Below are positions 1 through 58,815 of a stretch of 64,000 nt of DNA, one piece after another. The notes under the pieces are model-generated. The model was given only the letters and a program-made list of their open reading frames with translations, was not told the origin of the DNA and did no database searches. The translations under genes and the position numbers were made by a program. Numbering within the stretch: position 1 is the first letter of the stretch; each line of letters begins with the position of its first letter. The stretch comes from a virus (taxonomy: Duplodnaviria; Caudoviricetes). Location of the stretch: positions 26,732 to 90,731 of IMG/VR virus record IMGVR_UViG_3300021086_000004; one strand, 5' to 3'.

Positions 1-110
1 GAGGCTTCGAGGGCGCGGTCAACCTGGGCAGTGGCGTACGCGGACGCCTTCACGTCGGCCGCCGCAGCGACCTCCTCGCGCGTGACATAGCACGCCCGGG
101 TAATGCCCAT
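1..110 (-). CDS. Head-to-tail connector-like protein, 5' part (runs off window)
   Basis: ATG at 110 after AGGAAGG; MGITRACYVTREEVAAAADVKASAYATAQVDRALEAS resembles actinophage connector N-termini; position downstream of capsid genes. Confidence 0.6.
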   Translation of the reverse strand, partial: MGITRACYVTREEVAAAADVKASAYATAQVDRALEA

Positions 111-196
111 GCCCTTCCTGTCCCTTGCTTACTTGGCGCCGGCCCCGAGGGGCCGAAGGAGGAGCCGTATTCAGTTGTCGACCAGTGCCTATGCCG

Positions 197-913
197 TCAG
201 GTCGGCTCCACGATGTGCCAGCCCACGACCGACGTGTCGGTGACGACCCCCGTCACCGAGAACGACACCCCAGCCGACCGGCCCGACACCCACGCGATCC
301 CCGCCGGAGTGCCGCCGGTCGACTGCACCGTCAAGAAGATCAGCGAGGTTGCGGTGACCGCCGTCGTGGAGACCGCGACCGGCGTCGCGCCGTTCAGCGT
401 CAGCGTCCCGACGGTCGCCGCCCCGCCACCGGACTTGATCTGTAGACCCTTCCCCGCCGTGGCGATGACGAGGTTCCCCGAGGTGATGGTGCAGTTCCCC
501 GTCCCGGCGATCGTCGTCCCGGACAGGGCGCCTGTCGACGCGACCGAGGCCGCGGTGACCGCGCCGGTAGCCGCCACCGACGCCGCAGTCACGGCCCCGG
601 TGGCAGCAACGGACCCGGCGGTCACCGCACCCGACACGGCCAGGGACGACGGCGTGAACCCCGACTGGCCGACGGTCATGATCGTGCGGCCGGCGCGGTC
701 CTGGAGGTCGATCAGCGGCCCAGGGCCGCGTACGACGAGGGCCGCCGTGTTCGCGTTGGTGGTTTCCGCGTACACCGCCGCGCCGGTCCCTGAGGTGGAC
801 GCCTGGGTGGCGGAGACGGCGTGCCGGTTCGTGGCCCCGCCGGCCGGGGCAGACGACGCGGACACCGCGTCCGTGGCCGTGTCGACGGTCGCCGCGCGGA
901 CGGGGCTGGTCAC
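197..913 (-). CDS. Virion fibre/spike-like protein with 11-aa repeats
   Basis: GTG at 913 just after stop of upstream gene; Ala/Thr/Gly/Ser-rich, three GAVTA(A/G)SVA(A/S)T repeats; in structural cluster. Confidence 0.55.
   Translation of the reverse strand: MTSPVRAATVDTATDAVSASSAPAGGATNRHAVSATQASTSGTGAAVYAETTNANTAALVVRGPGPLIDLQDRAGRTIMTVGQSGFTPSSLAVSGAVTAGSVAATGAVTAASVAATGAVTAASVASTGALSGTTIAGTGNCTITSGNLVIATAGKGLQIKSGGGAATVGTLTLNGATPVAVSTTAVTATSLIFLTVQSTGGTPAGIAWVSGRSAGVSFSVTGVVTDTSVVGWHIVEPT
534..632 (-). repeat. 3 x 33-bp tandem repeat encoding GAVTAxSVAxT
   Basis: Seen directly; synonymous positions diverge, so it is a protein-level repeat. Confidence 0.85.
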
Positions 914-920
914 TGCGGCC

Positions 921-1301
921 TCACCCAGTCCCTCGGGTACTGCCATCCGTCCCACTTGCAGTGGTACGTCCCGCCCGGCCCTGGTTCGAGCGGTTCCCCG
1001 TCGTTCGGGCAGGCCTCTGGGCGCTGGCTCGCCCACTGCTCGTGCTGCTGTCGGGCGTCTCGGAGGATGTCGATGAGCTGGTACCAGGAGATACGTCCTC
1101 ACCCTCTCCGCCGTCGTCGTCTTGGTCTGGTTCGGTCCAGCCGGGTTCGCCTGGCGCGGCGTTCCGGTCGGAGGGGCCGCCGTGGGCGGTGATCTTCGGC
1201 ACGATCGCTGTCCTTCCCATCGGCTCGGCGGTGCCGCAGCGCGGGCACGCGGACAGCCGCAGGCCGAACCCGGCCCCGCAGCCCCCGCACACCCACGCCA
1301 C
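921..1301 (-). CDS. Phage protein with N-terminal CxxC..CxxC and Ser/Thr-rich tail
   Basis: CGGC/CPRC, PKITAHGGPS motif recalled from Streptomyces prophage head clusters. Confidence 0.7.
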   Translation of the reverse strand: MAWVCGGCGAGFGLRLSACPRCGTAEPMGRTAIVPKITAHGGPSDRNAAPGEPGWTEPDQDDDGGEGEDVSPGTSSSTSSETPDSSTSSGRASAQRPARTTGNRSNQGRAGRTTASGTDGSTRGTG

Positions 1302-1313
1302 GGCCCCGCCCCT

Positions 1314-1799
1314 CTATGCGGCCACGAGGGTGGCGCCGTCGGTCAGCGGCACCCACAGCACGTACCAGGAGATCACCCCGTCGGTCCCCGCGGACACCGA
1401 CTGGATCTTGCCGGTGGGGATCGCGATCGGCGGCAGGCTGAAGCCGTAGCCGGCGGACGTGTTCCCGGTCGGCGACATGAGCTTGTACGGGGTCGTTCCC
1501 GCTGTCGCCGGACTGCCGAACCCCAGCAGCGACCCGGCCGCCGTGTCGGTGGTGCCGATGTCGACAGCTGCGCACAGCGGGGCCGCGTCCCCCGTCGTCG
1601 GGGTGACCTTCAGGTAGTACGAGTTCGCGACGGTGATCGCGGTGGTGACCTTGCCGTACACGGCAGTCAGCAGCACCTCACCCCCGGCGACGATGAACAG
1701 GTCAACCGTCGTCGCGGCCAGCGTGCCGGTGGACTTGGTGACCGGGCCGAGGCCGAAGAGCGCCTTCCGGAACGCGGAGTTGTTCAGCGCGACAGTCAT
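1314..1799 (-). CDS. Virion structural protein (putative head decoration)
   Basis: Beta-rich Thr/Ala/Gly composition; follows capsid genes. Confidence 0.7.
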   Translation of the reverse strand: MTVALNNSAFRKALFGLGPVTKSTGTLAATTVDLFIVAGGEVLLTAVYGKVTTAITVANSYYLKVTPTTGDAAPLCAAVDIGTTDTAAGSLLGFGSPATAGTTPYKLMSPTGNTSAGYGFSLPPIAIPTGKIQSVSAGTDGVISWYVLWVPLTDGATLVAA

Positions 1800-1809
1800 C
1801 CCGGGCCGC

Positions 1810-2331
1810 CTATGCCAGCGCCGCGGCGAGGTTCGCCGGGGTCCGCTTGATCGCCAAGTCGTGCAGGATGTACAGGCACGAGATCAACTGCGCCCCGGCT
1901 GCGCCCGTGTCCGCGATGTCCAGCGACACGTACTTGTACCCGTCGGCCAACTGCACCGCCCGCACCGGAATCACCAGGATCTGCTGGTGCTCCGCCGAGG
2001 TGCCAGCCCCGCCCGGGTCGGTGATCGTCGCCGCCGCGGACTGCGTCACCTTCGACCACGTCTCCGTGCCGGCGAGGGTCGCCGCGTCCTTCAGGTAGTA
2101 GTGGTCGATCGTGGCGAGGTTCGCCGACGTGCCCGACGAGGACGCGGTGTGCTGCTTCAGCGTCACCACCGGGTCATCGTTGGCGGTGCCGGCCGCCTTG
2201 AACACGACGATGCTGACCGCGCCCGCGTTCTTCAACGAGACGCGCTTGCCGGTCATCGCGGCGGTTTGGCTGTCGACGAGGACGATCCCCGCCGACAGGT
2301 CGAATTCGTTCCCGAGGCCTTCTTGTGCCAT
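1810..2331 (-). CDS. Virion structural protein (putative head decoration)
   Basis: RBS GAAGGAG before ATG; position downstream of major capsid gene. Confidence 0.75.
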   Translation of the reverse strand: MAQEGLGNEFDLSAGIVLVDSQTAAMTGKRVSLKNAGAVSIVVFKAAGTANDDPVVTLKQHTASSSGTSANLATIDHYYLKDAATLAGTETWSKVTQSAAATITDPGGAGTSAEHQQILVIPVRAVQLADGYKYVSLDIADTGAAGAQLISCLYILHDLAIKRTPANLAAALA

Positions 2332-2432
2332 CCCTGTGCTCCTTCAGTTGGAGTGCCCCGGCCGGGGCGGGACTGCCGGCCCGGGTGGTGCGGCCGGCCC
2401 GGGGGTTCATTGCCGGGCCGGCCCGTAGCGGG

Positions 2433-2945
2433 TCAGACGTCGGGGGTGATCTCCGTCGGGTCGGACGCGGCGATGGTGAACCGCTCCGCGTTGCCGGGGA
2501 CGACGACGACCAGGAGGTCGCCGGTCGCGGCCCGCCCGCCGAACGCGGCCTCCGCGTGGACGGTCGCCTGCCCGAGGGTGCCGGTCGCGGCAGCGACTGC
2601 GGTGCCGTCGCCGTTGTCGGTCAGGTTCAGGACCGTCGCGTCGTCCACTGTGTAGGTGACCGTCGCGTCCGCCGGGGCCGCGACGGGGTTCCCGACTTCG
2701 TCGGTGTACTCGCCGGACAGGGTGGTCTGCTGGTCGGCCTTCAAGTCCATGATCGTGTCCAATCTTCCCGTTGCCGGTGCCGTAGGTGTTCCGGGCTGCG
2801 GCCCGGGGGTCGGATTGTCGGCGGGCGCTGCGATGCGCCACGCCCAGCCGAGGATCGGGAGCCGGGACGCCAGCAGCATCCGCTCGTCCCGGACGACGTC
2901 GCCCAGGACTTCGCGGTGCCACGGAGGCATGCCGGCCGGCGCCAT
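2433..2945 (-). CDS. Ig-like domain structural protein
   Basis: ATG 2945 two nt after capsid stop (alternative start 2750); C-terminal VTYTVDD..LTDNGDGTAVA pattern typical of Ig-like folds. Confidence 0.6.
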   Translation of the reverse strand: MAPAGMPPWHREVLGDVVRDERMLLASRLPILGWAWRIAAPADNPTPGPQPGTPTAPATGRLDTIMDLKADQQTTLSGEYTDEVGNPVAAPADATVTYTVDDATVLNLTDNGDGTAVAAATGTLGQATVHAEAAFGGRAATGDLLVVVVPGNAERFTIAASDPTEITPDV

Positions 2946-2947
2946 GG

Positions 2948-4315
2948 TCAGGTCCGGGTGCTGTTCAGTTCGACGAACGGCGAAAGGGTCGGACCGCCAT
3001 TTGCCGGGGTAATTGCGGACATAACCCACGGCCTTCCGTCGACTCGCTGGATGATCCGCCACGTGGTCTTGTCGGAGCCGAACAGGAAGTCGGTCGAGGA
3101 GTTGACCATCATCGTCTGCCGGTCACCGACGAGGTAGTAGGAGAGGTCCGCGAAGACGATGTCGCCCTGCGTCCCCAACTGCGAGCACTTCTCGGTGATG
3201 AGCAGGGGGCGGCCGTAGATCGTCGCCGGCGCCGGACCCGCCGCGTTGGTGAACATGACCGGGGCGCCGCCGGTGCCGACCGAGAGGGCCATCTCCGCGA
3301 GCTGCGGCCACGAGTCCGGGGAGCAGAACCACACCGCCCGGGACAGGCTGGCGGGGAGCATCCGCGAGTACATGCGGTTGATGTTCTCGATGACGATGGT
3401 GTTCGCGCCCTGGCCGGTCTGCGCGGTCTGGACGACGGTGGCCGGGTTCCCCAGGAAGCCCAGCGGCTCACCCGCGCCGCTCCCGGAGAAGAAGCCGAGG
3501 TCTTCGAAGAACGCGATGGCTTCGGGCCATTTGGTCTCGACGAGCGCGGCGAACGACATGAGGGAGTCCGCGAGGAGTTCGTTCGGGACTGCGGACAGGC
3601 CGGTGAGCTTCTTCGCGTCGAGCTCGACGCGGCCGAACTTCATGGACGAGTCGGTGAGGGACGCGCCTTCCTCACCCCAGTAGGCGATCATCCCGCCGAA
3701 CACGGAGCCGGCGTTCGTCGTCGAGTCGATCATCGGGATCGGCACGCGGGCCGACTCCATCGGCAGCACCGTCGCCCGCGGCCGGACGATCGACTGCTCC
3801 AGGGCGATCTGCAACAGGTTCGCCCGCAGCGTTTCGGGGACGAGGAACCCGCCGTCCGCCGGCACCGTGGAGCCGAAGGCGTTCCGGATCGCGTTGAGCT
3901 TCGCCCGCTGCTCCTGCGCCTCCGGGGTGTTGTTGTGGTGCCACACCGCCTTCGCGAACTCGGCGCCGGTGCGGAACATGGCGTCGACCTGCGCCCCCGC
4001 CGACGCCGGGTTGTACGCGGCGCCCTGCCGGTGGCTCGTGAGCATGTTCGCCGGGCGGGTCTGCGGGTCCAGGTTGAGCCGGCGGATCGCCCCGCCGAGT
4101 TCCGGGTCCTGCCGCGCGAGGGCCGCGGTCTGCCGCTCGACCTCTTCGGCGACGAGCCGTGAGATGTCGGTACCGGGGGCCTGCTGGGAGTTGGCGTACC
4201 CCTGGACCCAGTCCCGGAGGGCGCCCTTGGACGCGAGGATGCTCGCCGACGCAGTCGGGTCGTTGAGCATCTCCTCCATCTCGGCGGCGTTCTTCGGGAT
4301 CGCGGGTGCGGTCAT
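2948..4315 (-). CDS. Major capsid protein, HK97 fold
   Basis: DGGFLVPE, YWGEEGASLTDSSMKFGRVELDAKKLTG, RVDGRP motifs; ATGA overlap with protease stop. Confidence 0.95.
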   Translation of the reverse strand: MTAPAIPKNAAEMEEMLNDPTASASILASKGALRDWVQGYANSQQAPGTDISRLVAEEVERQTAALARQDPELGGAIRRLNLDPQTRPANMLTSHRQGAAYNPASAGAQVDAMFRTGAEFAKAVWHHNNTPEAQEQRAKLNAIRNAFGSTVPADGGFLVPETLRANLLQIALEQSIVRPRATVLPMESARVPIPMIDSTTNAGSVFGGMIAYWGEEGASLTDSSMKFGRVELDAKKLTGLSAVPNELLADSLMSFAALVETKWPEAIAFFEDLGFFSGSGAGEPLGFLGNPATVVQTAQTGQGANTIVIENINRMYSRMLPASLSRAVWFCSPDSWPQLAEMALSVGTGGAPVMFTNAAGPAPATIYGRPLLITEKCSQLGTQGDIVFADLSYYLVGDRQTMMVNSSTDFLFGSDKTTWRIIQRVDGRPWVMSAITPANGGPTLSPFVELNSTRT

Positions 4316-9634: not shown

Positions 9635-10497
9635 CGTCGGTGTCCGTTCGTCCGGTGGGGTTTGTGGGTGGGGCAGGGCACGGGCCGGTCGGGGTCTCCG
9701 AGCCAGCCACCGACGCAGCCATGCGCGCACGGCTCGGCAGCCGGAGGGCCATGCCCGTTGACGTGCGGCGGGAGCGGAGTCGGCTCGGCCCAGGCCCGCC
9801 AGTCGGGAATCACAGCCGCGAACCCGCCGCGGTCGCCGAGCGATGCGATGAGCCCGCCGGGGCTGGTCGCACCCCGCGCCTCGTGGAGGAACTGCTCGAT
9901 CGACGGACGGTCGCTGGCCGGGATGCCGTGGGCTGCCAGCACCCGATCCGCCTTGTCGCTGCCGTTGCCGTTGGACTTCGAGGAGCTAGCTAGCTGAGTA
10001 GAGGAGAAGCTAAGAGCAGGGACCCCCAACTGGGGGAGCAACGAATCCCGGACGGGGGAGCAACTGACCCCAACTGGGGGAGCAACGCCATCTGTTGCTC
10101 CCCCAGTTGGGGGAGCGTTAGCCCCTCCCCCGGCCTCCTGTTGCACCCCCGCCTGGGGGAGCAACGCTCGGGCGAGTGCGCCGATGTCATAGGTCGTCTG
10201 CCGGCCAAAGCAGCAGAACAGCGGCTGCCCCGACTTCTTCACGCCGATCTGAACCCTCGTCTCGAACTCCGTGCCGGCCAACTTGTCCAGCGCCTTCCCG
10301 GCCTGCTTCTCGCTGGTCAGGCCAACCCGTCGCGCGACGATCACGAGCAGGCTGTCGGCCTCGCCCCACTGGCCGCTGAACGCCAGTCCGGTCTCATCCT
10401 TCGCAAGGTCGGCCAGTTCGAGCAGCACCGAGCGTCGTGAGCCCTGAAGGCTTGTCGGCAGCGCGTCGGCCAGCGCGCGACGCAACTGGTAGCCCAT
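9631..10497 (-). CDS. Replication initiator-like HTH protein (lambda O-like architecture)
   Basis: N-terminal SVLLELADLAKDETG plus HTH-like region; central low-complexity linker carrying DNA repeats; C-terminal CxxGCxGGWLGD..PxPC motif. Confidence 0.6.
   Translation of the reverse strand: MGYQLRRALADALPTSLQGSRRSVLLELADLAKDETGLAFSGQWGEADSLLVIVARRVGLTSEKQAGKALDKLAGTEFETRVQIGVKKSGQPLFCCFGRQTTYDIGALARALLPQAGVQQEAGGGANAPPTGGATDGVAPPVGVSCSPVRDSLLPQLGVPALSFSSTQLASSSKSNGNGSDKADRVLAAHGIPASDRPSIEQFLHEARGATSPGGLIASLGDRGGFAAVIPDWRAWAEPTPLPPHVNGHGPPAAEPCAHGCVGGWLGDPDRPVPCPTHKPHRTNGHRR
10024..10165. repeat. Iteron-like repeats (putative replication origin) inside the rep-like gene
   Basis: CCCCAACTGGGGGAGCAAC at 10024-10042 and 10068-10086, exact inverted copy at 10094-10112, partial copies at 10054-10064 and 10153-10165. 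Confidence 0.75.
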
Positions 10498-47826: not shown

Positions 47827-48056
47827 CGGGGTTGCCCGTACTGGACCCCGTCGCTCTGCCCGGCGATCCAGTCGAGGCAGGCCGGGCAGTTGATCGTCCC
47901 GCCACACAGCCACACGGGCTGGCCAGCGCACTGGGCATGCCAGGACCAAGTGTCGAGGCACTGGCGGCCGCGGTGGATGAGGTACGGGTCGTACTCGGCG
48001 AACGGTAGGCCGGTGCCGGTGAGTTCATGGCCGGTCACGTCGATGGCGTTGTTCAT
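47823..48056 (-). CDS. Cys/His-rich hypothetical protein
   Basis: ATGA-coupled; CPAC. Confidence 0.6.
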   Translation of the reverse strand: MNNAIDVTGHELTGTGLPFAEYDPYLIHRGRQCLDTWSWHAQCAGQPVWLCGGTINCPACLDWIAGQSDGVQYGQPR

Positions 48057-49011
48057 GCCGGGACCACCTCCACGTACTCCGGCGCGTGTTCGATCACGGG
48101 CCGGGCGTGCGGCTTGCACCGCGGGCACGGCCGGGGATGGTCAGGGTCACCGAGCCACCCACCCGCGCAGTCGCACGCGGTACGCGGCGACGGCGGGACG
48201 GCCGGGCGGAACAGGCCGGCGAAGGGCTGCGCGGCGTCCAGCCGGTCGGCCATCTGCTCAAGCCCGGCGTGGACGTCGAGCGTCAGCCAGCCTTCGGCCT
48301 TCGAGGCGGGCGGGGGCATCGGGACGGGCTCGGCCCATCGGCGCCAGGCTGCGATGAGCGCGGGCAGGGTGCCGTCTCCGTGCGCGACGACAACGATCCC
48401 GAGTCCCTTGCCCTGCTCGGCGAGGTAGGCCTGCACGCTGGCCCGGGCGGCGGCCGGGTCGAGGCCGTGAGCGGTCAGGGCTTGGTCGACGCGGTCCGGG
48501 CGTTTGATTTTCTCCTCGTGCGCGCTAGCTAGCTTGCCCTCTTCTTGGTCAATGAACTTCTTGGTAGAGGGTTCTTGGTTGGATTCCCTGCAGGAACCAC
48601 CCGGTTCCCCCGGTACGCCACCCGGTTCCTGCAGGGAACCACCTGCGGTGGGCGGCTCGGGCGGCGCGACCCGGCCGAAGATGAGCCGGTACTCGCTGGT
48701 GACGGACTCCCGGCCGCGCCACCGCAGGATCTTCACCAGCGCGCCGATGCACTCCAGGACGTGGCATGCGCGCATCGCAGTACTGCGACTACAGCCCATC
48801 CGCTTGGCGATGCCGCTGTAGGACAGGGTGATGGATCGGTACTCACCGGCTGCGGTCCGGAAGGTGCCCTGCTGGCCGAGGCACACGTAGGCGTCGACGA
48901 CGTAGCTCTGGGCGACCTTCTCTTGGGGTCGCGCGCGGGCGCCCACTCCCGGATTCGCTGGCGGACCCAGGTGGGCATCATGACGTAGCCGCCGCCGGTC
49001 TCGTCGCTCAC
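48053..49011 (-). pseudogene. Replication initiator-like HTH protein with one-base frameshift near 48919-48928
   Basis: Coupled GTG start gives MSDETGGGYVMMPTWV..ARDP; the HTH (SYSGIAKRMGCSRSTAMRACHVLE) and C-terminal CDCAGGWLGD..PRPC are in the other frame. Confidence 0.6.
48584..48643. repeat. Direct and inverted repeats (iteron-like) inside second rep-like gene
   Basis: TTCCCTGCAGGAACC and its reverse complement GGTTCCTGCAGGGAA flank two CCACCCGGTTCC direct repeats. Confidence 0.65.
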
Positions 49012-51651: not shown

Positions 51652-52109
51652 ACGGGCAGCCCGGAGTGTTCGCCGCCGTCTTCGCGGCCCTGTACGCGGC
51701 GCACATGGTCGGCGACCACTGGGTGCAGTCGGGCTGGCAGGCCGCGAACAAGCACCGCCGCGACTGGACCGGTCGGTGGGCCTGCGCCGGGCACGTCGCG
51801 TCCCTCGCCTTAACGAAGCTGGCGTTCGTCATCGTTGCCGCCTCGGTGTGTGACCTGCGACTGAACCAGTGGCGGCTCGTCGCCGGCATTGCCGTGGACG
51901 CCGTGTCGCACTACTGGGCGGACCGCCGGTTCACCCTCGCGGGGCTGTGCGCCCGGCTCGGGAAGGCGCAGTTCTACGCGCTCGGCGCGCCACGCCCCGG
52001 ACGGGACGACAACCCGTCGCTCGGCACAGGCGCGTACGCCCTGGATCAGTCCTGGCACATCGGCTGGCTGTTCGTCACGGCACTGATCGTCGCGGCAGGT
52101 GCGGCATGA
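51648..52109 (+). CDS. DUF3307-family membrane protein
   Basis: LYAAHMVGDHWVQ, SHYWADRR, DDNPSLGTGAYALDQSWH. Confidence 0.8.
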   Translation: MNGQPGVFAAVFAALYAAHMVGDHWVQSGWQAANKHRRDWTGRWACAGHVASLALTKLAFVIVAASVCDLRLNQWRLVAGIAVDAVSHYWADRRFTLAGLCARLGKAQFYALGAPRPGRDDNPSLGTGAYALDQSWHIGWLFVTALIVAAGAA

Positions 52110-52702
52110 GTCGCCGCCGGCCGGCGCTGCTCACCCGCCGCGGACGCACCCGGATCCGCCACCGCGCCTACGCCCTGGCCGCCGCGGCGGGCGGCATCGG
52201 CTGGGCGTGGCACACCCACCCCGGCGCCGTCGTCGCCCTCGGCGCCCTTGCCGCAGCCGTCGCCGCCTACCGGCTACGCCACCGGATCGCACCCCTCATC
52301 GCCGGCCGCCGGCAGCCCACCCCCGAGGCCGACACCCGACCCACCGGGCTCTACCAGCACTGGTTCGCCGAATCCCACATCCGCCCATGGATCGACGCCG
52401 GATGCCCCCGCTCCTGGTTCGGCTACACCGGCATCTCCGTCGCCTACGCCCTCCGCTGCGAACAGCACGCCGAGAAAGCCTGGTGGTGGCCGCTGGTCGA
52501 CGCGAACCTGTCGACCCTCCAACTTTGGAACACCCGCGACGAGGCCGAGGCCGCCGAGCTGGCGACGATCGCCGAGTACTGCGGCGTCGGGAACGAGATC
52601 GGCAACCCCCGGTTCCGGGAGCAGGCCCAGTTGCGGGCCGAGTTGATGGCGTACGCGGCGCGGGTCCGCGCGCAGCAGTTGACCTATGCGAGGACCGGAT
52701 GA
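52106..52702 (+). CDS. Membrane-anchored GIY-YIG nuclease
   Basis: Two N-terminal hydrophobic segments; TGLY..YTGIS..RCEQHAEKAWW..TRDEAEAAE..N. Confidence 0.7.
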   Translation: MSRRRPALLTRRGRTRIRHRAYALAAAAGGIGWAWHTHPGAVVALGALAAAVAAYRLRHRIAPLIAGRRQPTPEADTRPTGLYQHWFAESHIRPWIDAGCPRSWFGYTGISVAYALRCEQHAEKAWWWPLVDANLSTLQLWNTRDEAEAAELATIAEYCGVGNEIGNPRFREQAQLRAELMAYAARVRAQQLTYARTG

Positions 52703-53101: not shown

Positions 53102-55111
53102 ATGACGTCCCCTCCGCCGATCGTGCCCGCGCCGCCGCCGGTAGCGGCGGCTCCCCCTGTCACGCCGGCCGACGTGAAGCCGGCGAAGACCCCGCCCGGG
53201 CCGAAGACCGCAGCCGCTCCGCCGCCGCTGATCCCCGCGCACCGCCGCCGGCAGGCCGCTCTCGTTGGCGGTGCGGGTACCGCGGCCGGATCGACCGCTG
53301 CGGCGTTGGGTGCGGCGCAGGCCGGGATCGCACCCGGGTTCGGCGTGCTGGGAGCGCTCGGCCTGGCCGCCGGGGGCGCTGCCGGGGTGGTTGCGGTCCG
53401 CCGCCGCATGCACCGCCCCGTTACCGCCGCAGCCGCGCCGAAGGCCAAGCCGGGCCTGCGTGCCCGCGCAACAGCCCGCCGTGATGTGGCGAAGGAACGG
53501 CGGGGGAAGCTCACCGAACGGATCCGCGGCGCCCTGAACCAGCGCCGCGGGTCGAAGTCACCCGCCGGACCGGAAGCCCACTCCCGAGGGCGCCGGTCCG
53601 GCGGGGCCGGCCCAAGCCGCCGACGGATGGGCCGGCAGGCACCCGGGGTCCAGCCCCGGTCCCCGGGTGCCCCCACGCCGAAGCGCGCCGGCCGGCTGGC
53701 CCGTGCGATGCCGACGCGGGCCGGTAAGGCCGCGAGGGCTCAGCGGCGCGCGGAACGGGCGGGCGGCAGGGGCCAGCCGGCGAACTCGCCCACCGGAGGC
53801 CGGACGCCTAGGACGACCGGCAGCCCTGGCCGCCGGTCGAGGCTGGGCCGGGCGTGGGATCGGCGGCCGGGTGGTGCGGGCCGCGCCGCACGGGCAGCCA
53901 CCGGGGCCGCGAGCGGCAGTGGCGGCGGGTCGAGCAAGGCGCAGCGGAAGGCCGCGCGGAAGGCTCAGTCCGCGGGTGCGGGCACCACCCGGGCTCCGTC
54001 CGGCACTGGACGGCGCGCCCGCCGCGCCGCCCGGAAAGCCGCCCGGAACGCACCGCCGACCGTCGCCGCGCCACCCGCCGGTAAGGCGAAGAGCGGCAAG
54101 AAGACCCGGGCCGCGAAGACGACCAAGCCGGCAGCCCCAACTCCGACCGGAGCCGGGGCGAAGGCCGCACCCGTCGCCGCCGGCGCGGTCCCCCGGACGG
54201 TGTGGTCCAGCCGGCGCCGTGACCGGCGGAACCTAGGCGTCCCCGCGGCGCCGGTTCAGGCCGGCAAGGGGCGGTGGGCGCGGCTCAAGGCGCGGCTGAA
54301 CCCGGTCGTCGCATCCGGCTCGACCAAGCACGTCCCGTGGGAAGAGCCACCCCCGCCGAAAGGCGGAGGCGTCGGACCGGTCTCGCCGAAGGCCGGACCC
54401 AAGCCGCCCGGTGGGCCGCCGGGCGGCTCGAAGGAGAAGCCCCGGGTCCTGACCGACGACCGGGTCCTCGCCACCCGCGGCGCCCGGACCCGACGACAGG
54501 ACTTGGCCGACTCGCAGTGGGGACCGGCGGGTCTCCGCGATGACCCGCCGCAGACCGACGCGTCGTGGGCCGCCGGGTTCGCCCCCGGCCCGGAGCCGCT
54601 GGCCGAAGACGCACGAACCGCCGCCCGTGACCGCTGGCAGCGCCGCACCAGCCAAGGAGCCACCGTGCCCGGAAACAAGGATCCCCTCGGATTCCACAAC
54701 GCCCGCAGAGGCGCCGACGGCGAGATCCACGACCGCGCTCCCGCGACCGGCATGGCACGACCGGCCGCGCCATGGGGCACCGACGACCCGTACAACGGCC
54801 CGTCCCGCGGTGGCGGCACGGGTGAGATCGCCGACATGCGCACCGACATGCCCCGGTTCGAGGCCACCGCCGCGGACGCCGCCGAAGACCTCGCAGCTGA
54901 CTTCCGACGCCGCGCCGCAGAGGTCAGCGACGGCACCCCCTCGTCACAGGCCGTGAAAGACGCATGGGAGGCGCTCGCCGCACAGCAGTCCGCCGTCGCG
55001 CAGGCCACCGCGGAACTCGCTGGCATGTCGCAGCGGGTCGACGCGGTAGGCCACGACGCCGGGGACCGGTACGGCCACGACCCGAACTTCGGCAAGTGGG
55101 CGGGCCGCTGA
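53102..55111 (+). CDS. Large Arg/Lys/Ala/Pro-rich transfer-region protein with TM and helical C-terminus
   Basis: Hydrophobic segment near N-terminus, long basic low-complexity middle, helical acidic C-terminal domain. Confidence 0.65.
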   Translation: MTSPPPIVPAPPPVAAAPPVTPADVKPAKTPPGPKTAAAPPPLIPAHRRRQAALVGGAGTAAGSTAAALGAAQAGIAPGFGVLGALGLAAGGAAGVVAVRRRMHRPVTAAAAPKAKPGLRARATARRDVAKERRGKLTERIRGALNQRRGSKSPAGPEAHSRGRRSGGAGPSRRRMGRQAPGVQPRSPGAPTPKRAGRLARAMPTRAGKAARAQRRAERAGGRGQPANSPTGGRTPRTTGSPGRRSRLGRAWDRRPGGAGRAARAATGAASGSGGGSSKAQRKAARKAQSAGAGTTRAPSGTGRRARRAARKAARNAPPTVAAPPAGKAKSGKKTRAAKTTKPAAPTPTGAGAKAAPVAAGAVPRTVWSSRRRDRRNLGVPAAPVQAGKGRWARLKARLNPVVASGSTKHVPWEEPPPPKGGGVGPVSPKAGPKPPGGPPGGSKEKPRVLTDDRVLATRGARTRRQDLADSQWGPAGLRDDPPQTDASWAAGFAPGPEPLAEDARTAARDRWQRRTSQGATVPGNKDPLGFHNARRGADGEIHDRAPATGMARPAAPWGTDDPYNGPSRGGGTGEIADMRTDMPRFEATAADAAEDLAADFRRRAAEVSDGTPSSQAVKDAWEALAAQQSAVAQATAELAGMSQRVDAVGHDAGDRYGHDPNFGKWAGR

Positions 55112-55113
55112 CC

Positions 55114-55890
55114 ATGACGGGCAGGCTCGTTGTCGACGGCCCGGACAGGGTGGGCGCGGTCGCGTACACATTCATCGTGTTCGCGGTCAGCATCGCCGTG
55201 TCCGGGTTCGGGCAGCCGGCCATGTTCGGCCCCGTCCCGTGGGGGTGGGCCGTCGCCGTATATGGCACGTTGGGGGTGATCCTCGCCTGGGGGTTCCCCG
55301 TCCGCGTGTACGCCACCGGAGGCGGCGCCACCGACTGGACGTTCCCCCTGCCGGTCCGGGCGTGGACGGCGGCGGCCATGGTGGTCGCGTTCTGGGTCGC
55401 CGCCGGGGCGTGGGTCGGGTATGGCTGGGTCCACGGGTGGGGGTCGGGCCGGTACTGGATGTCCTGGCTGGGCGGATTCGCGGCGACTGCCACCGCGGCG
55501 GCGACGTGGGCTCCCCCGACGAACCTCGGTCTGCCTATGCAGCCGTACGCGGCCGATCTGGCCGCAGCCGGGCTAGTCCCGGCCGCGGACCCGTGGGCGC
55601 AGATCGTCGCCGCGGCCACCAAGGGTCGCGTCGCGGGGGTGACTACCCGGCGGGTCGACCGGTGGGAATCCGGCTGCGGCTACTCCGCGTACCTCACCCT
55701 CCCCGGTGACGGCTCCACCGACGAGACGCTACAGCCGTACCAGGCGGCGATCGCCGCCGTCCTAGACGTCCCCCGCGGCGGCGGCGTGACCGTCTTCCCC
55801 GACCCCGACGGCGGGGCGCGGGCGATCCGCGTCGACGTCCTCGAAACCGACGCGATGGCCTCGGCCATCGACTACCCCGGGCTGGACTGA
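55114..55890 (+). CDS. TraB N-terminal membrane part (separate ORF)
   Basis: About 4 TM segments, then AIAAVLDVPRGGGV..RAIRVDVLETD, the TraB pre-motor region; TGATG overlap. Confidence 0.7.
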   Translation: MTGRLVVDGPDRVGAVAYTFIVFAVSIAVSGFGQPAMFGPVPWGWAVAVYGTLGVILAWGFPVRVYATGGGATDWTFPLPVRAWTAAAMVVAFWVAAGAWVGYGWVHGWGSGRYWMSWLGGFAATATAAATWAPPTNLGLPMQPYAADLAAAGLVPAADPWAQIVAAATKGRVAGVTTRRVDRWESGCGYSAYLTLPGDGSTDETLQPYQAAIAAVLDVPRGGGVTVFPDPDGGARAIRVDVLETDAMASAIDYPGLD

Positions 55891-57233
55891 TGGAGCCGCT
55901 GACGATCAACGGGCCGATCCCGTTCGGCCGGCACCGCGACGGCACCGTCGCCGCCGCCCAGATGCGGTTCGCCTGCGTGGCGATCGTCGGCGAGCCGAAC
56001 TCCGGGAAGACGATCCTTGAGCACAACCTGTGCTGCGGGCTGATCCGATGCCCCGACGCACTGGTCTGGATGGTCGACCTGTCCCGCGGTGGCCTCGCGA
56101 ACGCCTACCTGAACCCGCTGGTCGACGGCGACGTGACGACGCCGCCGGTCGACTGGATCGCCACCGACCCGGGTGAGGCGCATGCGATGACGCAGGCCGC
56201 GTGCGACATCATCGGCCGCCGACGGGCGGTGTACCGGCAGTGGATGAAGCAGCGGCGGACCGACAAGCTCCCCCTCACCCACGACCTGCCGGCGATCTAC
56301 ATCCTGATCGACGAGGGGAAGAAGGTCACCGGCGCGCGGGCGGACCTGAAACTCCTCGCCAAGATCATCCAGGTTGCGGACGAGGGCCGGGCGATGGGCG
56401 TCCGCCTGGTCATCACCGGCCTCCGCGGCACCTCCGAGGTGATCCCGTCGGAGTTGATGGCGGACATCGGCTGCCGCATCGGCATGTCGGTGGCGTCCGC
56501 GGCGGAGGCGAACTACCTGTTCGGGTGGAACCACCGGCCGAACCCACGGGACACCCCGTACCCGGGGTGCGGGCTGTGGCGGCACGGCCTCGGTGGGCCG
56601 CCAACCCCGTTCCGCTCCTACGACCTGTCCGATCCGACGCGGATCGCGCGGCTCGCGGTGGCGTGTGAGCCGTGGCGGCCCACCCTGGATGAGCCGTCCC
56701 TGGACGGGCTCGCCCCGGAGCTGCGGGAGTGGTACCTGAGCCGGTGGGAACGGGCCGCGGAGAGCCTCGGTGAGCCCGCGGGCTCAGGCGGCCCGGCGGC
56801 GCAGGTGAGCCATCCCAGTGGCCGCGTGGTAAGCCAGTCGCCGAGCCGGCCTATGAGCGCGTTGGACCGGCTCGCTGCCATGCCGTCGCTGGACCAGGCG
56901 CTCAACCGGGTCCGCCGCGCGCGGACGGCTGAGGGGCTCACCGGGGAGCGGCTGGACGAGCGCTGGGCCGACCTCGCCGCGCAGCTCGGCGACGACCGCG
57001 CGGCCGGCGGCGAGGGCTGGGCCGACGACGGCGTCGCGACCGAGCCCCGGGCTCGGATGCTGCAACTGGTCGACGCGGCCGGCGGCAACGGCGTGTCCGG
57101 TCCGAAGCTCCGCGAGGCGCTCGCCGCCGAAGGTCACGATGTGCCGATGACGACCCTGTACCGGTGGCTGAAGGCCGACGCGGTCGACGGCGGCTACAGC
57201 GTCTGGCACTCCAGGAAGGACATCGCGCCGTGA
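55890..57233 (+). CDS. traB: TraB / FtsK-SpoIIIE DNA translocase motor plus C-terminal winged helix
   Basis: PIPFGRHRDG, Walker A GEPNSGKT, Walker B IYILIDEG, EGRAMGVRL, C-terminal wHTH ending TTLYRWL. Confidence 0.88.
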   Translation: MEPLTINGPIPFGRHRDGTVAAAQMRFACVAIVGEPNSGKTILEHNLCCGLIRCPDALVWMVDLSRGGLANAYLNPLVDGDVTTPPVDWIATDPGEAHAMTQAACDIIGRRRAVYRQWMKQRRTDKLPLTHDLPAIYILIDEGKKVTGARADLKLLAKIIQVADEGRAMGVRLVITGLRGTSEVIPSELMADIGCRIGMSVASAAEANYLFGWNHRPNPRDTPYPGCGLWRHGLGGPPTPFRSYDLSDPTRIARLAVACEPWRPTLDEPSLDGLAPELREWYLSRWERAAESLGEPAGSGGPAAQVSHPSGRVVSQSPSRPMSALDRLAAMPSLDQALNRVRRARTAEGLTGERLDERWADLAAQLGDDRAAGGEGWADDGVATEPRARMLQLVDAAGGNGVSGPKLREALAAEGHDVPMTTLYRWLKADAVDGGYSVWHSRKDIAP

Positions 57234-58153
57234 TGGAAAGTCCCACCGGCGATTCCCCGCCCCCCGCGCCGGCTCTGAGCGTGCCGCTGCCCGCCGGGCG
57301 CGGTAATACCCACGGCAATTCCCGCCGGCCGATGGTGTGGTGGGGGGTGCTGGCGGTGGCCGCGTGCGGGGTTGTGGCGACCGCTCACGGCCTGTTCGCG
57401 GTCGCGGTGGTATCCGGGGTGGGTGCGCCGGTGGCGTGCCTGTACGTGCCGATCACGGACGGGCTGGCGCTGGTGGCGTACGCGTCGACCGGCCGGCTGA
57501 CGGGATGGGACCGCGGGTACGCGTGGCTGATCGTGGTGGTCGCGGCCGGGCTGTCGGGGCTGGCGCAGGCGGTGAACCTCGCCGGGCTGGGCGAGGTGGA
57601 CTGGCGGCTGCGGTTCGGGGTGGGGTACTGGCCGGCGGTGGCGGTGGCGGTGGCGGCTCACCTGCTGTGGCTCGTGGGCCGTCCCGGGCCGGTGCGAGCC
57701 CTGGTCGCCGAGCCCGTTGCGAGCCCGTCTAGCGAGCTCGGCGAGCCGGCGACAGAGCCCGGCGGTGAGCCCGCGCCGAGCCCGGCCAGAGAGCCCGAGC
57801 GAGCCCACCCGGTGAGCCCCAGCGAGCCGACCAGCGAGCCGCCATGCGAGCCCTCGGCGAGCCCGCCAGGTGAGCCCCACCGGGCGCCTCTTGCGAGCCC
57901 TGCCGAGCCGGCCAGCGAGCCCCCTGGCGAGCCCGCCGCGATGGGCTCGGTGAGCCCGATCCGGCGGCAGCGAGCCCGCGGGAAGCGAGCCCCCGACCCG
58001 GCTCTTCTGGACTGCGACTGCGGGCTCGCCAGGTGCCCGGGGCGGGTGTCGAAGGCGGCCCGGACGCGGCACCGCGCGGAGGTCAAGGAAGCCGCCGAAC
58101 TGGCGGGCCGTGCCCAGTCGAACGGGCACCGCGAGCCGGCGGGCGCACGGTGA
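57230..58153 (+). CDS. DUF2637 / Spd-like membrane protein with Pro/Glu-rich linker
   Basis: 4 TM (ATAHGLFAVA..YVPITDGLALVAY..AAGLSGLAQA..WPAVAVAVAAHL); GTGA overlap with traB. Confidence 0.75.
   Translation: MMESPTGDSPPPAPALSVPLPAGRGNTHGNSRRPMVWWGVLAVAACGVVATAHGLFAVAVVSGVGAPVACLYVPITDGLALVAYASTGRLTGWDRGYAWLIVVVAAGLSGLAQAVNLAGLGEVDWRLRFGVGYWPAVAVAVAAHLLWLVGRPGPVRALVAEPVASPSSELGEPATEPGGEPAPSPAREPERAHPVSPSEPTSEPPCEPSASPPGEPHRAPLASPAEPASEPPGEPAAMGSVSPIRRQRARGKRAPDPALLDCDCGLARCPGRVSKAARTRHRAEVKEAAELAGRAQSNGHREPAGAR
57696..57991 (+). repeat. Array of 22 direct GAGCC repeats (mostly GCGAGCC(C)), putative clt/TRS
   Basis: Spacing mostly 10-14 bp; occurs in all three reading frames (12/4/6). Confidence 0.85.
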
Positions 58154-58323
58154 TCGCCGCCGTGGGTGCCGCGCTGGCCGCGTTAGGTGTCCTGGCGGCT
58201 GCGTGCGGCCTGGGCCGTGCGCGGGAGTTGCGGGGCGAGCGTGAGCGGGCGTCGCAGCGTGCCGGGCGGGTGGCGTTGGCGGGGCCGGGGTGGTCGGGGC
58301 GGTTCGGCCCCGACCGGCCCTGA
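58150..58323 (+). CDS. Small membrane-anchored protein
   Basis: GTGA-coupled; N-terminal TM. Confidence 0.55.
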   Translation: MIAAVGAALAALGVLAAACGLGRARELRGERERASQRAGRVALAGPGWSGRFGPDRP

Positions 58324-58324
58324 C

Positions 58325-58507
58325 CTACCCGCAGTAGATGCAGCCATTGGGGTTCGCGCCCTTACAGGCGCCGCATCCCCGGGTCGCGGAGGTGCGGCGG
58401 GCGATGGCCGCAGCGAAGTCCTCGCCGAAGTACTGGGCTGCCAGGTCGAGCGCCTTGCCCTCGTCGCCGTAGATGGTGATCGCCTCGGACTCGGTGTTCT
58501 TGGCCAT
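58325..58507 (-). CDS. 60-aa protein with C-terminal CxxC..CxxC
   Basis: GGAAGGA RBS; own consensus promoter. Confidence 0.7.
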   Translation of the reverse strand: MAKNTESEAITIYGDEGKALDLAAQYFGEDFAAAIARRTSATRGCGACKGANPNGCIYCG

Positions 58508-58547
58508 CTTCTCGGTTCCTTCCGTTGCGCTCTCCCTGACAAGACAA

Positions 58548-58587
58548 ACTTTACCCCTCCCTACACAGGCTGTCAATAGGCTAGGAT
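58548..58587. promoter_or_regulatory. Overlapping divergent promoters
   Basis: Minus: TTGACA-N17-TAAAGT; plus: TAGGAT-N6-ATG(58594). Confidence 0.8.
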
Positions 58588-58593
58588 AAAGGA

Positions 58594-58815
58594 ATGGATG
58601 AGGACCGGATCGCGGAGTTGGCCGCACGCATCGACGCCCTCCGCGCCGCCCAGGACGGGCACCGCACCGCCATCTCCCGCCTCGCCGTCCAGGCCGCGGA
58701 CGCGGTCGCCGAGCTCGTCCGCGCCTGCGGTTCGCAGCGCACCGCGGCGGAGGCGCTGCACGTATCCGAGGGCCGGGTGAGTCAACTCCTCGCGGCCTCC
58801 CGCCGGGCCGCATGA
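58594..58815 (+). CDS. Small HTH regulator
   Basis: GSQRTAAEALHVSEGRVSQL. Confidence 0.75.
   Translation: MDEDRIAELAARIDALRAAQDGHRTAISRLAVQAADAVAELVRACGSQRTAAEALHVSEGRVSQLLAASRRAA

Follow-up and report, generated by a model that had tools for sequence, protein, structure and literature searches.

A GAGCC word array in a translated linker beside a divergent phage traB gene is a candidate clt-like loading site

FtsK and SpoIIIE are hexameric double-strand DNA pumps in which a C-terminal winged helix (FtsK gamma in the case of FtsK) reads oriented 8-bp words, known as KOPS for FtsK and SRS for SpoIIIE. The reading of such oriented 8-bp words by the FtsK/SpoIIIE winged helix is cited in a passage of PMC4447253. 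Passages of the same paper and of PMC4170104 and PMC3583192 describe clt loci as 8-bp direct repeats that the cognate TraB protein recognises through its C-terminal winged helix. According to the relevant part of PMC3583192, the clt of plasmid pJV1 comprises nine 9-bp repeats; that of pWTY27 consists of four 7-bp repeats, and 16 bp of this clt lie within traA (PMC3583192). In plasmid pIJ101, SpdA2 binds the sps palindrome located inside its own gene, spdA2 (PMC4170104). The plasmid-phage pZL12 possesses ParA/ParB (PMC4487206), and its conjugal transfer requires the tra gene together with two neighbouring genes (as cited in a passage of PMC3583192).

Here, we analysed a DNA stretch of 64,000 nucleotides (referred to as the window) from an IMG/VR virus genome of 90,731 bp, which is rated complete by CheckV. 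The record encodes a major head protein, a maturation protease, a portal, a RecT-like protein and an exonuclease, and the head genes lie about 50 kb from the array described below. ParA/ParB were not found in the record (no match to PF02195, PF13614 or PF01656). Near or within two initiator-like genes, we observed tandem repeats at 10024–10087 and 48587–48643, with units of 22 bp and 21 bp, respectively, and about 2.8–2.9 copies each; these are candidate iterons and distinct from the GAGCC array. An ORF at 48053–49138 matches the replication initiation protein family phrog_270.

The features of the traB region of the window are:

54964–55890, plus strand: membrane-anchor ORF, 308 aa, with hydrophobic segments and a TGATG overlap with the motor ORF
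55890–57233, plus strand: TraB-like motor subunit, 447 aa, assigned by profile, phrog, model and fold matches
56643–57042, both orientations: secondary cluster of 13 GAGCC/GGCTC in the region coding for the traB linker
57027–57230, plus strand: region coding for TraB's winged helix, a candidate for reading the array, from model and fold matches
57233–58153, plus strand: downstream gene, 306 aa, whose ATG overlaps the traB stop codon (TGATG)
57696–57991, plus strand: main array, 22 copies of (A/G)GCGAGCCC at a spacing of about 12 bp, plus one copy with one mismatch and one inverted copy

The motor ORF is laid out as an FtsK/EccC-like ATPase (residues 1–295) with visible Walker A and Walker B motifs, a disordered linker (297–382) and a C-terminal winged helix (about 386–441). 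It matched the family phrog_31069 (FtsK/SpoIIIE-like; E 1e-57). AlphaFold predicted the motor domain with confidence, and Foldseek aligned it to FtsK (2ius, 6t8b) and EccC (4nh0) at E ~1e-13. A match to the EccCb profile (E 3e-7) remained far below the cut-off of that profile. Because the thresholds of the curated family HMMs were not reached, either for NCBIfam NF041214 plasmid_TraB (E 2.7e-6, 26.2 bits; cut-off 800) or for Pfam PF01580 FtsK_SpoIIIE (E 0.2, 11.5 bits; cut-off 24), the ORF at 55890–57233 is classed by sequence as a divergent FtsK/TraB-type relative and not as an equivalog.

When the C-terminal domain was modelled alone, it yielded a helix-helix-helix-hairpin topology at a pLDDT of 87, and every top structural match was a winged-helix DNA-binding domain (Z 7–8.6). 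These matches were generic winged-helix folds; FtsK gamma was absent among the structural matches listed. Together with the FtsK-like motor match, the model bears out the initial annotation, which had described the protein as a TraB with a C-terminal winged helix, so that a motor joined to a winged helix is the architecture established in silico. A search of a protein database gave about 20 TraB relatives of 40–62% identity, in which the motor is conserved, the linker is hypervariable and of low complexity, and the winged helix is again of the TLYRWL type, named after a helix that is conserved across the family. For five of these relatives (L004–L008), we also compared the DNA.

The comparison accounts for the short upstream ORF. 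The membrane-anchor ORF is homologous to the N-terminal part of a single-chain TraB in L005 (blastp, residues 116–268 of the long form), and tblastn located matches to it directly upstream of the motor in L004–L008. The N-terminal membrane anchor of the translocase is thus a separate upstream ORF in the window and is fused to the motor in L005. Because of this homology upstream of the motor and the fusion in L005, the split between anchor and motor (54964–57233) looks like a natural two-subunit form of TraB in this clade.

The array begins 463 bp past the traB stop codon, within the coupled gene, and the TGATG coupling of traB to this gene is kept in four relatives. The downstream protein consists of an N-terminal membrane domain of four segments, an array-encoded linker rich in EP, SP and RA, and a C-terminal CxCG...C...TRTRHR motif that is conserved in all array-bearing relatives. 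The array had been described earlier as overlaid on a flexible linker of the gene after traB, and this placement holds, the linker being translated and not conserved. The accompanying label of the protein as DUF2637-like could not be upheld. The Pfam model of DUF2637 (PF10935) gave no match for the downstream protein even at E 10, and against this model the homologues in L007 and L004 scored 18 and 12 bits, respectively, both below the cut-off of 22.8. The nearest ESM Atlas clusters were DUF2637 (0.87), which is a lead only. A search of the C-terminal tail against Pfam found no recognised DNA-binding family. An overlapping ORF on the minus strand (57194–58129) was rejected as a real gene, given that the membrane domain and the C-terminal motif of the plus frame are conserved in relatives.

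Our recount reproduced exactly the array as it had first been noticed. GAGCC occurs 22 times on the plus strand between 57696 and 57991, and GGCTC twice in the same interval. Longer forms are common among the 22 copies, with GCGAGCC in 13 and GAGCCC in 18. Most spacings (17 of 21) measure 10–15 bp, with a mean of about 12 bp, and the remaining four measure 20–23 bp; one of these wider gaps contains a copy with one mismatch (GAGCT, at about 57733) and another contains an inverted copy (GGGCTC, at about 57942). Relative to the ORF, the copies are distributed over the three codon frames as 12/4/6.

Counting across the genome confirmed that the word is concentrated at this locus. The background amounts to about 0.7 GAGCC per 300 bp, and the next-densest 300 bp of the 64-kb window outside the array hold 7 copies; Poisson arithmetic on the window counts puts the chance of such an array at about 1e-25. 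Over the whole record, 10 of the 14 occurrences of GCGAGCCC fall inside the array, which makes the word rare elsewhere on the replicon, as do 18 of the 50 occurrences of GAGCCC. Beyond the array, no strand skew of GAGCCC is evident (32 forward vs 42 reverse in the 90.7-kb record). The secondary cluster, in the 3′ third of traB, is the second-densest 400 bp of the record (mean 1.8 per 400 bp); L004 and L007 have arrays at the same position of their own traB linkers.

A position matrix built from the copies resolved a word of 8–9 bp, (A/G)GCGAGCCC, with a 5-base core, GAGCC, that is identical in 22 of 22 copies. Because the information is confined to these 8–9 bp and the flanks carry only 0.1–0.3 bits, the conserved element is the word and not a tandem unit. 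Whichever frame or strand is read, the word is free of stop codons. Several other identities for the array were considered and rejected. An ordinary tandem or CRISPR-like repeat does not describe it, as TRF returned fragmentary periods of 12, 23 and 47 at 63–80% match and conservation is limited to an 8-mer, the spacers being free. An RNA element was dismissed on a fold z-score of –1.1 relative to shuffles and the lack of any Rfam match in 55500–58700. A tRNA or attachment site was likewise discarded: there are no tRNAs in the window, and no integrase (tyrosine or serine recombinase) was found in the record.

To separate selection on the DNA from selection on the peptide, the linker peptide was held constant and its codons were drawn from the record's own usage in 20,000 synonymous resamplings. 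The resampled linkers contained 10.0 ± 1.6 GAGCC, with a maximum of 16 in 20,000 draws, compared with 22 observed; for GAGCCC, the resampled value was 3.6 and the observed one 18. The copies outside the main frame are also written with uncommon codons. In frame 1, Arg is encoded in all four copies by the rare codon CGA (4.6% usage), and in frame 2, Ser is encoded in all six copies by AGC (14.8% usage). Because of the excess over resampling and the rare codons in the off-frame copies, we conclude that the word is kept at the DNA level, beyond what the peptide needs, in agreement with the initial annotation.

Arrays are also present in four metagenomic relatives, whose TraB proteins are 40–55% identical, with words of the forms GAGCCC, GAGCAC or GAGCGC:

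L004, traB linker: TGAGCCC/GGGCTCA, 11 exact copies in both orientations
L005, linker of the downstream gene: six copies of GTGAGCACCCC
L006, linker of the downstream gene: 18 copies of CGAGCGC, frames 7/2/9
L007, the same linker of the homologous downstream gene: 18 copies of CGAGCAC, frames 11/3/4
L007, second array, traB linker: eight copies of GTGAGCAC

No clear array was found in L008. Every array in the relatives occupies several codon frames, and the linkage to traB extends across them. The linker peptides cannot be aligned with one another (EP/SP in the window, EH/ST in L007, AER/SA in L006), whereas the flanking domains are conserved. The GAGCNC core is retained in the relatives, while the array peptide is free and the site of the array differs between the traB linker and the downstream gene. 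This is the reverse of a peptide pattern kept over scrambled DNA repeats, the outcome that the initial annotation had named as contrary to its proposal. In four of the five loci, the word keeps the same strand polarity with respect to traB. The arrays are unique within the genomes of the relatives: in G001, the record of L004, 14 of 20 TGAGCCC lie within 1.3 kb at traB, and in G002 five of eight GTGAGCAC lie inside its array. No near-identical DNA was present in the plasmid or phage collections, and a scan of genome contigs found no relatives.

Some further observations concern these relatives. The short peptide RAPLA(LL) (window 57881–57895, L006 at about 3990, L007 at about 2630) occurs midway through three linkers that cannot otherwise be aligned. 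In the window, it is encoded by different, partly rare codons (CCT CTT) and sits in the sole long array gap from which the word is absent; this peptide may represent a short linear motif of the protein. In L004, the homologue of the protein that bears the array has a GIY-YIG-like segment (about 3400–3600) at the position of the window's array. Earlier in the same operon of the window, the ORF at 51869–52702 shows a weak endonuclease match (phrog_3312, E 6e-4). G001 is a complete relative of 70.4 kb with direct terminal repeats. Within its bases 1–3700, the traB module begins some 1 kb in from the left end; in the window, some 6 kb separate the module from the right end of the record. Linker peptides of about 16 further TraB relatives hint at arrays of other words, for example through VNQ/LNQ repeats; this hint is left out of the evidence weighed below.

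More distant TraB/FtsK-like loci also carry clustered words. In the Frankia plasmid pFQ12 (L010, 4953–5005), TGACGCAA is present in four to five copies within 50 bp at the traB stop codon, and in the Nocardiopsis plasmid pSQ10 (L011, 4896–5040), GTAACG/CGTTAC is present nine times in 150 bp past the traB stop codon. Both are candidate clt sites. In the Thermobifida phage P1312 (L003, 6640–7540), about 43 GGTCC/GGTCT were observed over 900 bp in the gene directly after an FtsK-like gene, with the repeat consensus CCGGTCCGGT / CCGGTCTGGTG and copies in all three frames; ORFs are annotated on both strands of this region (P1312_061 and P1312_062). Gene 100 of the Streptomyces phage Hiyaa (L002, 2934–3200), upstream of an FtsK-like gene, contains a cluster of CCGGGTC / GGGTCCGG. 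The reverse complement of the Hiyaa word, GACCCGG, is one that we take to resemble the TraB word of pSVH1.

The most likely reading, to which we assign a probability of about 0.6, is that the array is a candidate clt-like loading site for the TraB pump of the phage. We infer that TraB is the reader of the array and that the outcome is transfer or spreading of DNA. In the mechanism proposed here, the approximately 22 directly oriented 8–9 bp words would act as a cis battery for a double-strand DNA translocase of the TraB/FtsK type. TraB would load on the words through its C-terminal winged helix and, once loaded, would pump the phage replicon across the hyphal wall or septum, either to a different hypha or from one compartment to the next. 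The words stand in the disordered linker of a membrane-protein gene that is translationally coupled to traB, and a weaker cluster of mixed orientation is located in the traB linker; because stop codons are absent from the word in any frame, it can be packed into a linker whose amino acids are unconstrained. The EP/SP/RA peptide would then be a by-product of the DNA signal. Growth of the array probably proceeded by 12-bp duplications (compare the exact 12-bp steps in L007). With respect to the term "transfer origin" used in the initial annotation, the clt-like reading is favoured, but the wording overstates the case, as a clt serves to load a pump of double-strand DNA and is not a nick site.

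Several points count against the clt-like reading. The phage TraB is far from the characterised ones, its winged helix matches generic winged-helix folds, the 22 copies contrast with the 3–9 repeats of the characterised clt sites cited, and L008 is without a clear array. The downstream protein has a conserved Cys-rich basic tail of its own that could be the reader, and the replicon is a phage. The tracking of word and recognition helix is not clean: across five loci only, the window agrees with L004 in word as well as in helix type, whereas L005 and L007 share GAGCAC and differ in their helices. A wider picture is conceivable, though we consider it doubtful. In this picture, a complete tailed phage in which neither an integrase nor a partition system was detected would employ a TraB pump of two subunits, together with a docking array of 22 copies, to move double-strand DNA between hyphae or compartments without virions. 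In this lineage, the docking array would routinely occupy disordered linkers that are translated, whether in traB or in the membrane partner coupled to it, and the cis signal would dictate the peptide and hop between genes while keeping its GAGCNC core.

Several other explanations have to be weighed against a loading site for TraB. The downstream protein might read the array itself, through its Cys-rich CxCG...C...TRTRHR tail, and so tether the replicon to the membrane translocation complex. The conservation of that motif wherever there is an array would fit such a role, as would the Streptomyces plasmid precedent of SpdA2, which binds a site in its own coding region (PMC4170104). However, L004 retains the tail, yet its array sits in traB, and the tails of L006 and L007 are nearly identical although their words differ (GAGCGC vs GAGCAC). 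Moreover, sps is a 12-bp palindrome in two to three copies rather than a directional battery of 8-mers, and the tail does not belong to a recognised DNA-binding family. Reading by the protein's own tail therefore appears unlikely to us. The array could also act in cis for another process: for partition as a centromere, for replication as iterons or for packaging as a pac site. Direct repeats spaced 10–12 bp apart are typical of plasmid centromeres and iterons, and a record without recognisable ParA/ParB may need some other stability device. Nevertheless, a ParA/ParB-type gene was found neither nearby nor elsewhere in the record, the separate tandem repeats already adjoin or overlap the two initiator-like genes, the distance of some 50 kb to the head genes speaks against a pac site, and the array accompanies traB in every array-bearing relative. 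Of all the explanations considered, we regard this as the least probable.

A similarly low standing, very improbable in our view, applies to the idea that the linker is a low-complexity sequence without any function at the DNA level, born by slippage in 12-bp duplications, homogenised by gene conversion and tolerated owing to the freedom of the linker sequence to vary. The period of about 12 bp corresponds to four codons, the traB linker of L007 contains four exact 12-bp steps, and the linkers are disordered, all of which would be expected from slippage. On the other hand, the 5-base core is exact in every copy while the spacers hold next to no information, and the copies occupy three frames with the use of rare codons. 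The GAGCNC core also persists although the arrays, positions and peptides of the relatives have diverged, even where the array lies in a different gene, and the shared polarity at four of five loci is kept although both strands are free of stop codons.

If TraB does load here, a compact stretch of about 300 bp would offer a clonable handle on the question of whether actinomycete phages can spread as naked DNA through a conjugation-type pore. Such spread, if true, would make the boundary between phages and conjugative plasmids less sharp and would add to pZL12, so far the only case known. Judged from its sequence, the array appears to be a clear example of a DNA-binding code laid over a protein-coding region, in which the word shapes the EP/SP/RA peptide. 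The words GAGCAC and GAGCGC yield EH/ST or AER/SA peptides instead, which cautions against reading low-complexity linkers as protein features. The series GAGCCC, GAGCAC and GAGCGC occurs naturally and could serve to map the way in which a winged helix of the TraB type reads its word.

The locus shares with FtsK gamma/KOPS and SpoIIIE/SRS a pump with a C-terminal winged helix and oriented 8-bp words. Unlike KOPS, which are dispersed and skewed along the chromosome, the words described here are packed into one array. Like sps of pIJ101, the array would be a cis site that lies within a gene for transfer or stability and leaves a peptide motif in its product (PMC4170104); sps, in contrast, is bound by the protein that it helps to encode, and SpdA2 is small and soluble. 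The Streptomyces plasmid-phage pZL12/phage ZL12 (GQ919031) is comparable in being a phage-type actinomycete replicon of 90 kb, whose FtsK/TraB-like gene shows 31% identity over the motor. It differs from the present record in that a k-mer scan found no comparable array around its tra gene and in its ParA/ParB, which were not detected here.

A close resemblance is to the clt sites of the Streptomyces plasmids pSVH1, pJV1, pIJ101 and pWTY27. Like these, the array is a cluster of direct 7–9 bp words at or past the 3′ end of a translocase gene, an FtsK-like translocase with a winged helix at its C-terminus is encoded, and the word is specific to its replicon and rare elsewhere; the overlap with coding DNA has a parallel in the clt of pWTY27 (PMC3583192). 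In contrast to these systems, the array has 22 copies, compared with 3–9 in the characterised plasmid clt sites cited, it lies wholly in a translated linker that it enters in all three frames, and the traB linker contains a second cluster. The array is carried by a tailed phage whose TraB has diverged strongly and is divided between an anchor ORF and a motor ORF. Among sites of this type, the present candidate is unusually large, fully translated and phage-borne.
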